Sequence record: OZ346222.1
Length of the DNA: 64,000 bases
Origin: a phage
Strand: one strand, 5' to 3'
The notes beneath the pieces are model-generated. The model made no database searches. It was not told where the DNA came from and saw only the letters and a list, made by a program, of their open reading frames with translations. Position numbers and translations under genes: made by a program. Every line of letters begins with the position of its first letter. Within the stretch, counting starts at the first letter, position 1. Shown one piece after another: positions 1,928 through 7,156 of this stretch.

Positions 1928-3995
1928 ATTTATGGCATCTGCATACAACCGTTTCGGTGAGCCAAACCCGAAAGCAACTAAGTATAAAAGTGGGGGAAGT
2001 GTGAAACGAGACTATCGTGATGAAAAAGAGGTTGAAACTGTAGAGACTGTTTTAGAAAATACTAAAATCGTCCCTGTCCCACAACAAAATATCGGTCTGA
2101 TGGCTGCACAATATTTTGGTGTGCGATCAGCATTATCCCAAGAAGATGGTGTGACAGTCACTGCAACATATTTCCCATATTACGACCGCTACGGAAATCT
2201 GTCCGGTTTCAAAAAGCGTGACTGGACGATTCCTAAAGAGCAAAGAGGCCATTTCTCCGTTGTTGGCATAGTAAAGGCTAACTCTCAGATGTTTGGTCAA
2301 AAGCTGTGTGCATCTTCCAACAACCGTAAGCAGATTAACGTTTGTGAGGGAGAAGGTGATGTTATTGCAGCATGGCAGGCTGCATATCAGATACAAGTAA
2401 AAGGGATTCTCACCAACGCTAAAGCCCCGGCAAAGGTGAAACAGTGGGCTAAAGAGGTCCAGGACGGGATCGATGCAGTTATCAACGGTGGCGATCTGGC
2501 AGGAAAACCATGCCTGCCTTTTGTTGGAATTAACTGTGGATGTGCAAACGCAGTAGATACTTTTGCAAACAATGAGAAGTTTATCCGTAGCTATGGAACA
2601 GTTGTGCTGGCAATGGATAACGATGCAGCTAACGAGGTAGAGAAGCAAAAACACGTCATTAAAGGTGTTGAGGCCACGCACAATATCGCAGCATTTTTGA
2701 TGGCTGATAACGTTTACCACGTAGAATACCCTGGTGAAGTAAATGACCCTGACGGGGTAAAAGATATCCGTGACATGCTGAAGGCTAAAAAGCTGGAAGA
2801 TATTGTCAACATGTTCCGGCACCCTGTTAAATATGTGCCTGATGCTGTGTCGGATTTAGAAGACTTCTCTATCGAGTCTTTGCGGAAAAAGACTTCCAAC
2901 GGGGTAGATATCAGCGCAGAGTTCCCAAAACTGCAAAAAATGCTAAAAGGCTTGCACAAAGGGACACTCGTAATGCTTACAGGGCCATCAGGGGGCGGTA
3001 AAACAACTGTAGCTAAAAAACTGGAACATTGTATTGCAAGATACCTAATGGACCCGACATGCCCGAAGGCTGATGACTATGAAGAGGATGATCGTCTATG
3101 TATGATCCATCTTGAGGAGGACCCGGAGGAAGCAATTAACTCCTTGTATGCAAACCAGTTAGGGTTTGATGTTAAAGAGTTTGTTGAAGATCCTAGCCAG
3201 TTTTTAACTGATCAAGAACACGCAGAGATTCACCAATCATGGGCAAAAGCTGGAAAAATCAAAGTGTTCAAACATTTCGGATCTATTCCGGTGGACGAGT
3301 TGATTACCAAGCTTAAGCAAATGGTTTGCCTGTACCATTGCCGTTATATTGTGCTGGATCACCTGTCCATGGTAATTTCAGGGCTTAATGTTAAGGATGA
3401 GCGAAAAGAACTGGACATGGCTATGACTCAGCTGGCTGCGTTTTGTAAGCAGTTTAACGTGTTTATCTTAGTGATCGCTCACCTCAAACGTACAGAGATT
3501 GTGCCTCCTAAGGACAAGGATGGTAACCCGTTACCTTTCTGGTATCCTGTGCGAAAAGAGAATTTGCGAGGATCGGCGGGGCTTGAACAGTTGAGTTGGG
3601 TAGTCATAGGTGTCGAGGCCGAAGAAATGGTGGATCGTTCTCGTGGACGTGTCCGTCTGGTAGGTCTTAAAAACCGTCCAGCAAAAACTTTAGGTATTGC
3701 TGACACTTTGGTTATGGACCCGCACACAGGTAAGTTCCATGATGCCAGTAATTGGTACTGGGACAAAGAAATGCAAATGTTTACAGACGGAGAAGGTGGG
3801 GAGGTTGTTTGGAGACCTCAGGCTATGTTTGAGGATCAGGAGCATGCAGTTGTAGAAACACCTATGGGCAAGGTTGTGGCTGATAAGGTTGTAACTCCTA
3901 CTGTTAAGCCTGTTGACACGCAGGAAGACCTCCAGTACGATGATCCATCCTCTGACCCGGTCCCTGGTTTTGAGGATGATGAAACGCCTTTTTAA
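1917..3995 (+). CDS. DNA primase/helicase (TOPRIM primase + DnaB-like helicase, T7 gp4-like)
   Basis: TOPRIM-like CEGEGD and MDNDAA motifs; Walker A GPSGGGKTT; Walker B IVLDHLS; acidic C-terminus ending DDETPF. Confidence 0.8.
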   Translation: MGSKFMASAYNRFGEPNPKATKYKSGGSVKRDYRDEKEVETVETVLENTKIVPVPQQNIGLMAAQYFGVRSALSQEDGVTVTATYFPYYDRYGNLSGFKKRDWTIPKEQRGHFSVVGIVKANSQMFGQKLCASSNNRKQINVCEGEGDVIAAWQAAYQIQVKGILTNAKAPAKVKQWAKEVQDGIDAVINGGDLAGKPCLPFVGINCGCANAVDTFANNEKFIRSYGTVVLAMDNDAANEVEKQKHVIKGVEATHNIAAFLMADNVYHVEYPGEVNDPDGVKDIRDMLKAKKLEDIVNMFRHPVKYVPDAVSDLEDFSIESLRKKTSNGVDISAEFPKLQKMLKGLHKGTLVMLTGPSGGGKTTVAKKLEHCIARYLMDPTCPKADDYEEDDRLCMIHLEEDPEEAINSLYANQLGFDVKEFVEDPSQFLTDQEHAEIHQSWAKAGKIKVFKHFGSIPVDELITKLKQMVCLYHCRYIVLDHLSMVISGLNVKDERKELDMAMTQLAAFCKQFNVFILVIAHLKRTEIVPPKDKDGNPLPFWYPVRKENLRGSAGLEQLSWVVIGVEAEEMVDRSRGRVRLVGLKNRPAKTLGIADTLVMDPHTGKFHDASNWYWDKEMQMFTDGEGGEVVWRPQAMFEDQEHAVVETPMGKVVADKVVTPTVKPVDTQEDLQYDDPSSDPVPGFEDDETPF

Positions 3996-4053: not shown

Positions 4054-6447
4054 ATGAGTATGTGGTCTTTCGATTTTGAGTCATCCGGTTTGCTGGAAGA
4101 CCCAGATCTTTATTATCACTGCGGTCTGTTTAAAGAGCTGAATAAGAACCGTTTTATGCTGTTCCTTCCTCTAAATGACCGCACACACTACTCCGAGGAG
4201 GATATAGAAAAGGCTAAGAACTTCATTCTGTCAAAGAAAACTCTTTATAAAGATTTTGAAGTTCGCATAGCAGATTTTTCGGAGTTGGAAGGTTGGCTTA
4301 CAGGCAATTCTGACTGGTCACCAACAGCTTTGAACTGCCATAACTGCTACAGTTATGACTTTATGCTAATGGAAAGATTATCCGGTATTCATTTTGATAT
4401 GTTCCGTGATCCTAAATGCATGGGGACTATCAACGACCACCAGGTTAACCTGTTTGATACGTTGGCTATGAGCCGAATCTTGTGGCCTGATCGCCCTTTA
4501 CCAAAAGGTTGTCCGGACGCTGTATTCAACCCGGTTACTAAGAAAATGCAACCTGTTGGTCCTCACGGCCTTATGGCATGGGGCTACGCCCTTGGTAACC
4601 AGAAAGTTCAAATTGATGACTGGCGCGATCTTCCGTTGTGGAAGTATGTGGATCGTGTATTCGAGGACGTTATCATCCAGGAGCTGCTCTGGAAAGAGCT
4701 GGTAGCGGAATCAAAAGGTGTATTCTACGGCAAATCTGACATGCAGAACTTTATGTACGATCCAGCCAAAGAGAAGCCGAAAGGGTTCAAGAAGATCACC
4801 TGGAAGAACGCATTACGTCGAGGCATGCTGCAGCACTTCCTGATGGAGCTGCAGGCCCGTCAGGGTGTATACTTCGACATAGATGGAGCTATTGCTTTAC
4901 GTGACCGTTGCGATGCGTGGATGAAAGAAATCGCTGATCGTGTTGAACCACAACTACCTTTAAAAGAGCTGTCAATGTCTCAGCGGCCCAAGTTCCCTGA
5001 AAAGCCGTTTAACCAAGACGGGACAATCTCTAATAATGGTTGGAAATGGTTAAAAGATAAGCTTGGCTATCCTGTAGACATGAGTGCTTTAGAGTTCAAA
5101 GCCCCGCCTAAGCGAGCATTTACCTCTACAGGAGATGTCAGCAAGATGGGGATAAAATGGTGTGAAGAGATGGGCTGCAAAGACCCCGATAAGATGGCTG
5201 ATTTCTTGAGAGGCTATATTAAGGGCACCTCCACACCACAACCCTTACCTAAAGAGCTGATGGATCAGGCAATAAGTGATCTGCAGCAGAAGCGAATGCC
5301 TGACTGCAAGATACCTATGAAAATCAGCAATCAGGACGACATCAAGCGATACCTAATCAGTGCTGGTTGGCTCCCAACAATGTGGAGAACTAAAGATGTA
5401 ACTAAAGACAGCAAGAAGAAAGCTTTACCTGATGCAGATGTTGATGCACGAGTATATGCATATATGGACGAGCTTTTGGAGTCAGAGTATTGTGACCTAA
5501 TTATCAACTTCTGGAACAAAACTGATGCTAAGTTCCAGACAACCGTGCACAAGTTCCGAAGCTTTCCTAACTCCGAAAGGATTAAAAAGGAAGTATTCGG
5601 GAAAATACGTAGAAAAGCCAGGGCACTTATTACTTCTCCGCAACTGAAAGATACGTTTGGACACCTATGCCCAAATCTTGAAAAATTGAACGGAGAGATG
5701 GCTAAAGATATCGTCTTGTGGTTATCATTGCGAAACCGCAGATCGGTCCTTGATCCAATCAAGGAGGATAAGGTTGATACTGGTCTTCTTAATCACCCAC
5801 GTTTGAAGATTGACCATAAGCTTCCTGCTAAAAGCTCTGGATTAACAAACACTTCCAGACAGAAACACAGTATTTGTGCAAACATGCCTAAACCATCTCC
5901 TAAAGTGGTTATGGGTAAAGAGATGCGTAGTCTGTGGGGTGTTCCTCCGGGATACTTTGAGATCGGTATTGACGGGTCCAACTTAGAGCAGCTTATCGGG
6001 GCTTGGGGTGCCTTTGAGTTCGACAACGGCCTGTATTATGATGTTGTAAGTAACGGAGACGCACACCAAAACAATGCTGAGGCATATACAAAAGTGGCAG
6101 GCAGAGAGGTGTCCCGTAACGACGGTAAACCTATCACGTATGGGGTTATGTACGGGGCACAAAAAGATAAAGTTGCAGATATGTTGGACATCTCCCCAGA
6201 GTTGGGACAAAGGGTAATCGATGCACTCTGGGATGCCAACCCAGGTCTTAAGGGGCGCAAAGAGGATCTGGAGAAATTCTGGGAAGCAACAGGTAAGAAG
6301 TTTATCTACTCTTTTGATGGTCATGCTATCTGGACCCGATCTAAACACTCTTTACTTAATGCATACCAACAAAATGGCGGTGCATCGTTGTGTGACTTAG
6401 TTGGAATACTCATGCACCACCAGATGGTGAAGCGTGGGTGGTACGAT
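4054..6447 (+). CDS. DNA polymerase, family A (exon 1: 3'-5' exonuclease and polymerase motifs A and B)
   Basis: Exo I FDFESSG; motif A-like IDGSNLEQL; motif B-like KPITYGVMYGA; uninterrupted ORF runs to TAA at 6481-6483 but lacks the conserved C-terminal region; 3' boundary set at proposed 5' splice site. Confidence 0.75.
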
Positions 6448-6753
6448 GAAGGTGTTCGTCGTATTATTTATTACCATAAATAACATTGTGGCTTCATAGA
6501 GTAATCTATGTCGAATAACCTCTTTAACTGCGGGAAGCCTAAACCTTATGGCAAGGTAATCCGCAACGAAGCGCTCAAAAGAGCGAACGCTCAGAGGCCA
6601 TTCCGAAAGGAAGTAGACCAGCAAGTGCGGTCGAAATGGGAGGATTCCTGTGGTTGCTTATCATAGGAATATGAGATGGTCCGATCCTACGTGAAAACGT
6701 ATGGCTATGCACGTAATGGTGCGGGGTAGCTTAACGACCTACCTGAACTATTG
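6448..6753 (+). other. putative group I self-splicing intron (about 306 nt, no ORF) in DNA polymerase gene
   Basis: Four in-frame stops between two same-frame polymerase ORFs; P-like CTGCGGGAAG (6527-6537), Q-like AATCCGCAACG (6558-6568), R-like GTAGACCAGCAAG (6613-6625), S-like ATGAGATGGTCCGA (6671-6684) with R/S covariation; exon UACGAU (6442-6447) can pair with intron GUCGUA (6458-6463) giving U.G at splice site; G at 6753. Confidence 0.5.
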
Positions 6754-7107
6754 GATGAGTACCAACTTCAAGTGCCTGACACACCGAAGTATAAGACTGT
6801 GTACACCTTCGACACAATTGAAGAACTGGAAGCATTTAAGGCAGAGCAGGAAGCCAAACTTCATGTGTTCGACGGTCATAAGTACAAAAAGGCACGCAAG
6901 GATGAGGACGGAAACGAAGTGGTTGACAGAGACGGAAACACGGTGTACGATCCTATCCTGAACGATGACGGAAAGCTTGAACTTATCTGGAGCCCTGTGG
7001 GTGAAATGGTGGTACATTGCTTCTGGCAAGCTTCTAAAATGATGGGAGTCCCGTTCCAGATCACAGGTGAATACTTGTGTGGTCGTAATTGGGGTGATTG
7101 TCACTAA
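6754..7107 (+). CDS. DNA polymerase, family A (exon 2: C-terminal region)
   Basis: Same frame as exon 1; ends NWGDCH, closely resembling the T7 gp5 C-terminus NWAICH; begins DEYQLQV, which after splicing would give WYD-DEYQ (motif C-like). Confidence 0.55.
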   Translation, partial: DEYQLQVPDTPKYKTVYTFDTIEELEAFKAEQEAKLHVFDGHKYKKARKDEDGNEVVDRDGNTVYDPILNDDGKLELIWSPVGEMVVHCFWQASKMMGVPFQITGEYLCGRNWGDCH

Positions 7108-7156
7108 TGTAAACTATCAACACATGGAAGTGTTGTTGAGCAAAGAGGAGACTTTT

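Follow-up and report, generated by a model that had tools for sequence, protein, structure and literature searches.

The analysed stretch of DNA (record OZ346222.1; 64,000 nt, hereafter the window) comes from an rV5-like Vequintavirus of the subfamily Vequintavirinae, infecting E. coli; a 1-kb query taken around the locus described here matched Escherichia phage MaxTheCat at 99.7 % identity and phage rV5, of the same genus, at 99.5 %. In a neighbourhood comprising primase/helicase and family A DNA polymerase genes, the ORF list holds two polymerase ORFs, 4054..6483 (809 aa) and 6751..7107 (118 aa), which share one reading frame and are separated by exactly four in-frame stops, just as an earlier note on this DNA had described. 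The resemblance of the C-terminal NWGDCH to NWAICH of T7 gp5, also pointed out there, was confirmed, and the surplus of about 70 residues between motif C and the C-terminus was measured as about 66 (counting from the motif C Asp, 117 residues remain in the window polymerase vs 51 in T7). T7 gp5 is no more than a distant relative of this polymerase (E about 1e-15).

We conclude with high confidence that this polymerase gene carries a 276-nt group I intron of the IA2 type, devoid of an ORF, at 6478..6753. The earlier note had likewise proposed a compact ORF-less group I intron within a family A polymerase gene, a proposal borne out by the Rfam search, covariation, intron-less alleles and a joined-CDS annotation in public records. 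The covariance-model search that it suggested, with Rfam RF00028, gave a significant match at 6468..6703 spanning the full model (1-253), with 64.7 bits and an E-value of 4e-14. This score exceeds the gathering score of 50 and thus places an intron-like ribozyme at the locus far beyond chance. A permissive Rfam scan (E≤1) over the whole 64-kb window returned nothing besides this match, and no tRNA emerged when the same 64 kb were scanned.

For the boundaries, we used an artificial query consisting of 6328-6477 joined to 6754-6903. Among the 40 phage records that matched this query best, at least 17 did so without interruption and therefore represent intron-less alleles. JeffSchatz and Murica read TATTACCAT^GATGAGTACC (the caret marks the junction), which equals the 6477^6754 join of the window base for base, and the intron-less sister phages read TATTACCAT^GATGAG; since neither boundary has a repeated base, the join is unambiguous. 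Exon 1 is continuous in JeffSchatz and Murica and aligns to T7 gp5 up to VHDEIQV. The intron begins with AAAUAA, with a stop codon one codon past the splice site, and ends with the omega-G, G6753, which is present in 15/15 of the relatives aligned below and which the earlier note had correctly taken as the last intron base, as the intron-less alleles confirm. The 925-aa spliced products of MaxTheCat and AlexBoehm are identical to QXV82815.1 and QXV75624.1, for which GenBank gives CDSs joined from two pieces, and the 925-aa spliced product of the window equals EFF5076588.1. The same artificial query had no match in complete E. coli genomes, so that a resident prophage is ruled out.

The insertion point lies between the His and Asp codons of the catalytic motif C (HDE). 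The alignment of the spliced product to T7 gp5, which the earlier note had recommended, places YYHDEYQL of the corrected product on WVHDEIQV, a canonical motif C; the motif is thus HDE and not the DDE that had been expected. The His of this motif is residue 881 in E. coli Pol I numbering (Klenow D882, E883). As a side observation, the ~66 residues missing from T7 gp5 are encoded in exon 2 at 6778..6990, between DEYQLQVP and the conserved C-terminal block, and the polymerase of Vibrio phage K412 has the same intron but lacks this segment.

The anatomy drawn in the earlier note was different, with an intron at 6448..6753, P1 formed by UACGAU/GUCGUA, R as GUAGACCAGCAAG and the junction WYD^DEYQLQV. 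In the window alone both of its pairings are perfect and its junction is in frame; nevertheless, we give it practically no chance of being correct. The proposed start is wrong by 30 nt, the 5′ splice site being U6477^A6478, and the residues EGVRRIIYYH are kept by the intron-less alleles and by uninterrupted homologous polymerases, which read ...GWYD.GVRRIIYYHDEYQLQVP, so that these ten residues are exon and not intron, which refutes the longer version. Both strands of the proposed P1 are wholly coding, and the pairing is broken in 9/14 relatives. The stretch taken as R (GTAGACCAGCAAG, 6613-6625) does not pair with S in 14/15 sequences and corresponds instead to the GUA linker and the 5′ strand of the covarying P7.2 hairpin. 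A DDE junction would delete the ten residues and with them the motif C His, which the T7 alignment requires, together with the strand before the catalytic Asp. In a collection of 15 billion proteins the 915-aa WYD^DEY product was absent and the 925-aa YYH^DEY product was present, and the real junction is ...RRIIYYH^DEYQLQV. The other proposed core elements held: P (CTGCGGGAAG, 6528-6537) and Q (AATCCGCAACG, 6558-6568) are present as P4 elements in the Rfam alignment, and S (ATGAGATGGTCCGA, 6671-6684) as a P7 element. An intein and a frameshift were rejected as readings of the interruption on account of the four in-frame stops, through which the insertion is not translated, and the 276-nt ribozyme.

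Table 1. Exons, intron and structural elements of the polymerase locus (window coordinates).
Feature	Position	Strand	Sequence or content	Basis
Exon 1, family A DNA polymerase	4054..6477	+	808 codons, ends ...RRIIYYH, last base U6477	ORF list, intron-less alleles
Group I intron, subgroup IA2-type, without ORF	6478..6753	+	276 nt	Rfam RF00028; intron-less alleles; spliced-product match
P1	6474-6479 / 6486-6491	+	exon CCAU + intron AA with guide UUGUGG	Rfam, fold
P10 part of guide sequence	6484..6487	+	CAUU, pairs with GAUG 6754-6757, exon 2 start	
P2 hairpin	6495..6510	+	CAUAGA-GUAA-UCUAUG	fold; 6/6 pairs compensatory
P3 5′ strand	6519..6524	+	CCUCUU, partner 6638-6643	Rfam, fold; 3/6 pairs compensatory
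P4	6529-6534 / 6560-6565	+	UGCGGG/UCCGCA; holds P and Q elements	Rfam, fold
P5/P5a	6537-6557	+	short, enclosed by P4	fold
P6 hairpin	6572..6585	+	CGCUC-AAAA-GAGCG	fold
J6/7 + P7 5′ strand (R element)	6590-6600	+	CUCAGAGGCCA	Rfam consensus UUCAaAGACUA
P7.1 hairpin	6601..6612	+	UUCC-GAAA-GGAA	fold
GUA linker	6613-6615	+	GUA	invariant among relatives
P7.2 hairpin	6616..6632	+	GACC-A-GC/GC-GGUC	fold; 4/6 pairs compensatory
P3 3′ strand	6638..6643	+	GGGAGG	Rfam, alignment
P8 hairpin	6644..6670	+	AUUCCUGUGGU / AUCAUAGGAAU	fold; 4/5 tested pairs compensatory
J8/7 + P7 3′ strand (S element)	6671..6684	+		Rfam, alignment
P9 hairpin, GAAA loop	6685..6704	+	CC-UACGU / ACGUA-U-GG	Rfam, fold; 4/7 pairs compensatory
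P9.1	6708-6723	+	UGCAC/GUGCG	fold; compensatory changes
P9.2	6725-6743	+	GGUAG/CUACC	fold; compensatory changes
Exon 2, polymerase	6754..7107	+	117 codons DEYQLQV...NWGDCH + stop codon	

The secondary structure was drawn from three sources, namely the Rfam alignment, a thermodynamic fold computed independently of any other phage, and the comparison with relatives, all of which agree. The fold recovered P1-P9.2 with an MFE of -88.4 kcal/mol (z = -2.59). P1 consists of 6 bp, CCAUAA/UUGUGG, with the wobble U6477.G6488 at the 5′ splice site; it is invariant in 15/15 relatives and therefore cannot be tested by covariation, but the intron-less alleles settle independently where it lies. A P10 pairing CAUU/GAUG, which lies outside the Rfam model, is predicted to be able to form, with 4/4 positions paired in 13/15 relatives and 3/4 in the other two. 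In P7, GGCCA (6596-6600) pairs with UGGUC (6677-6681), with 100 % pairing and an invariant G6596-C6681. P4 in the intron relatives reads GCGGG/UCCGC or GCUGG/UCAGC, as judged by eye, and the counterpart of P7.1 is GCC-GARA-GGC or a longer hairpin in the same place. Compared with the relatives, P5 and P6 of the window intron are unusually short, and P9 has a bulged U where they pair. Subgroup IA2 is distinguished by extra P7.1 and P7.2 helices between P7 and P3′, joined by G-U-A (PMC3428280). The window intron has exactly P7.1-GUA-P7.2, with a covarying P7.2 and an invariant GUA, and was assigned on this helix criterion.

To these structural data we added a comparison of 15 aligned cores, the window and 14 relatives at the H^DE site: AlexBoehm, FFH2, JLBYU08 and SYGMH1 (Vequintavirus), AV124 (Mydovirus), phiTE, CB7 and PBES02 (Certrevirus), PVP-SE1 and Csp-D17 (Seunavirus), 19-1-2 (Avunavirus), A5-4 (unassigned Vequintavirinae), Vibrio phage K412 and Pseudaeromonas phage KLEP7. 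All relatives with an endonuclease gene escaped the Rfam gathering scan, and their cores were cut by hand with the P, Q and R elements as anchors; the alignment was also trimmed by hand to remove endonuclease genes and the outer portions of P5 and P6. Over the 15 sequences, 99.5 % of 811 cells paired on the proposed structure and 27/55 pairs were compensatory, with both sides changed. The columns of P7.1 and of the P4 5′ strand were excluded from this formal count owing to MAFFT misalignment, so that P4 is represented by four well-aligned pairs only, which hardly vary. None of 500 shuffles reached the observed pairing or compensation, and pairing fell to 34-41 % when the partner columns were slid by 1-3. 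The core helices P3 and P7, which make up the pseudoknot, and P8 each contain compensatory pairs. P7 occurs as GACUA/UAGUC, as GGCCA/UGGUC (window, AV124, Csp-D17) and as GAUCA/UGAUC (KLEP7), and P7.2 as GACC/GGUC, GGCC/GGUC, GACG/CGUC, GGCG/CGUC and GGCA/UGUC, with an inner GC/GC vs CC/GG.

Splicing of the window transcript would follow the standard group I pathway. The pre-mRNA would fold into P1-P10, and an external guanosine bound in P7 would attack the phosphate after U6477, held in the U6477.G6488 wobble. Exon 2 would be aligned by P10 (CAUU/GAUG), and the 3′-OH of U6477 would then attack after omega-G6753, so that ...UACCAU is ligated to GAUGAG.... The predicted junction in the spliced RNA is UAUUACCAU^GAUGAGUAC. 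The spliced mRNA, reading ...RRIIYYHDEYQLQV..., would encode the 925-aa polymerase ...GVRRIIYYH^DEYQLQV, which would span the junction as IIYYHDEYQLQVPDTPK. Unspliced RNA would meet a stop two codons into the intron (AAA UAA) and yield the 809-aa product; as this product would be without the motif C Asp and Glu, splicing would be needed for an active enzyme. The self-splicing of the window copy is an extrapolation from its ribozyme and from a homologue, the polymerase intron of phage CB7 that holds CB7_50, for which others have documented splicing in vivo by RT-PCR and Sanger sequencing (PMC7344957).

A split polymerase could also be imagined, in which the 809-aa and about 118-aa polypeptides are translated separately and assembled without RNA splicing. 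A TTG at 6751 could serve as start of the downstream ORF, two polymerase CDSs are annotated in rV5, FFH2 and others, and an HNH insertion of CB7 in the nicotinamide phosphoribosyl transferase gene failed to splice (PMC7344957). However, the TTG sits within the conserved 3′ end of the intron, the break falls inside the catalytic triplet H^DE, and a complete group I core covarying over wide divergence is unexpected for a non-functional RNA. A precedent is reportedly offered by the NrdA gene of Aeh1, split by mobE, whose two separately translated polypeptides assemble. Since, in addition, the homologous CB7 intron does splice, we regard a split polymerase as highly improbable, and a spliced group I intron remains our reading.

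The intron might instead be decaying, splicing poorly or only with a protein cofactor, and in this way limit or regulate the polymerase output. The very short P5/P6, the P9 bulge, a G.U pair in P7 where most relatives have A-U, and an Rfam score that is the lowest of the five ORF-less members scored (64.7, the others 72.5-91.2) would fit such a condition. On the other hand, all core helices are intact, the polymerase is presumably essential, and the identical 276-nt intron is found in at least 23 phage records (at least 99 % identity), many of them from cultured, viable phages. We consider decay very unlikely; the intron may nonetheless have reduced activity or depend on a host or phage factor, given the short P5/P6 and the bulged U in P9.

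Ever since SPO1, phage genes for family A polymerases have been known to harbour IA2 introns. Self-splicing IA2 introns at conserved functional sites of such polymerases are described for SPO1, SP82, Bastille and Pf-WMP3 (PMC3428280, PMC11878797). Their site is Pol I residue 674, in the fingers, and not motif C in the palm as in the window, and they contain HNH nicking endonucleases, unlike the window copy (PMC3428280). The T7-like phages PhiI and W31 have an IA2 polymerase intron at Pol I residue 881 (PMC3428280). Like the window intron, these are IA2 introns in a family A polymerase of phages of enteric bacteria, and by the published description their site is apparently the same as that of the window or adjacent to it; their HNH gene lies in P6a, a region also used by relatives of the window intron, and the window copy is without one.

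A close counterpart is the intron of the Certrevirus phages CB7 and phiTE, which is inserted at the same site, IIYYH^DEYQLE. Neither P1 nor the guide sequence differs from that of the window, and the core is homologous: blastn aligned 73 % of the intron at 75 % identity, and the core conforms to the covarying structure described above. The CB7 intron differs in its length (687 nt vs 276 nt), in P7 (GACUA/UAGUC) and in a 127-aa HNH gene (Pfam HNH_3, 3.8e-8, above the Pfam cut-off) that runs from an enlarged P5 through P4′ and P6. CB7 and phiTE also have a second polymerase intron upstream, and the window has a single one. Extra HNH genes, free-standing or intron-borne, occur around and within the polymerase gene of FFH2 (L004 1..458) and CB7 (L012 1587..2036, 3489..3974).

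The window intron is real but already known, because GenBank annotates the exact junction, a genome paper notes an intron and splicing of a homologue has been demonstrated. Intron sequences 100 % identical to that of the window are present in rV5, PDX, RudolfGeigy and others. MaxTheCat (bas57_0074) and RudolfGeigy of the BASEL collection are among the genomes with an annotated intron, and MaxTheCat has the same 276-nt intron and a joined CDS with exactly this junction; the BASEL paper set intron boundaries by comparative annotation (PMC8594841), and the DNA polymerase gene of LL12 (gp212) was reported as disrupted by predicted intron sequences (PMC6658697). The public Vequintavirus records are without RNA structure or subgroup assignment, and those of rV5, FFH2, JLBYU08 and SYGMH1 list two polymerase CDSs, some (e.g. 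rV5) with small intronic ORFs. The rV5 RefSeq 'hypothetical proteins' rv5_gp222 and rv5_gp221 correspond to window 6508..6666 and 6701..6961 (+), one inside the intron and the other across its 3′ end; without a Pfam match and overlapping the ribozyme core, both look spurious. The present analysis contributes the correction of the boundary, a model of the structure that was put to a covariation test, and the placement in a subgroup. The boundaries 6477^6754 allow a correct annotation of the 925-aa polymerase with an intact HDE in the many rV5-like genomes, RefSeq rV5 included, in which the polymerase still stands as two genes.

No endonuclease gene was found in the window intron, and no ORF of at least 60 aa lies wholly inside it; neither a 52-aa internal ORF nor an 86-aa ORF running from the intron 3′ end into exon 2 matched a Pfam family, and both overlap the ribozyme core. 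Of the two features of a homing intron, the window copy therefore lacks an endonuclease of its own, and presence/absence polymorphism at one site is observed. Vequintavirus alleles at this site are intron-less, ORF-less (276 nt; 328-329 nt) or HNH-containing (842 nt). An HNH gene of about 163-172 aa lies in the P6 loop, between Q and R, in AlexBoehm, FFH2, AV124 and PBES02, the HNH_3 match of AlexBoehm being weak and below the Pfam cut-off. KLEP7 also has an HNH gene at this place. The HNH gene of CB7 and phiTE is a different one of 127 aa, starting in P5, and PVP-SE1 has a LAGLIDADG gene (LAGLIDADG_2) in P7.1. Thus, three unrelated endonuclease genes occupy different loops of one backbone (PVP-SE1 L015 660..1578; CB7 L012 2501..3187). 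The window copy lost, or never had, a homing endonuclease gene.

Phages throughout Vequintavirinae, as well as Vibrio and Pseudaeromonas phages, have this intron backbone, and many relatives lack the intron. When IMG/VR was scanned for the P1/guide-sequence motif, the same intron also turned up at H^DE in additional family A polymerases that are more remotely related. In the IMG/VR loci L023, L025, L032 and L037, this P1/guide-sequence motif (CCAU^AA..AUUGUGGC) stands after exons ending ...AHDxGxxHxH, which belong to a different gene, possibly ribonucleotide reductase, and the guide sequence may be shared by introns of other genes. Within the window intron, 6591..6625 and 6708..6747 have short matches of 88-90 % identity to unrelated phages, the P7.2-P3′ region to Vibrio ICP1 phages and the P9.1-P9.2 region to the phiKZ-like Pseudomonas phages KTN4 and SL2; they could represent IA2 modules in common use. 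Over 6100..7110, about 14-16 'Campylobacter phage' records (MG0656xx, host C. jejuni) share 97-100 % identity with rV5-like phages of E. coli, and their host labels look doubtful.

The window intron resembles different relatives in different parts, like a patchwork: it agrees fully with FFH2 in P1-P2, its 3′ end is nearest to AlexBoehm (86 %), and the P7 variant GGCCA/UGGUC together with the short P7.1 matches AV124 and Csp-D17. This make-up suggests recombination between intron variants. It is conceivable, though we hold it for less likely than its negation, that the ORF-less intron is more than a remnant and is retained because, by interrupting the H^DE target, it shields the polymerase gene from the HNH or LAGLIDADG endonucleases of co-infecting relatives with an armed version; such endonucleases, acting in trans, might also help to copy it into intron-less genomes. 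If this were true, the patchwork would be a trace of exchanges during mixed infections. The coexistence of armed, unarmed and empty alleles is the usual cycle of gain, degeneration and loss of mobile introns, and this intron family is a neat illustration from nature of how homing proceeds in cycles at a single boundary between catalytic codons.
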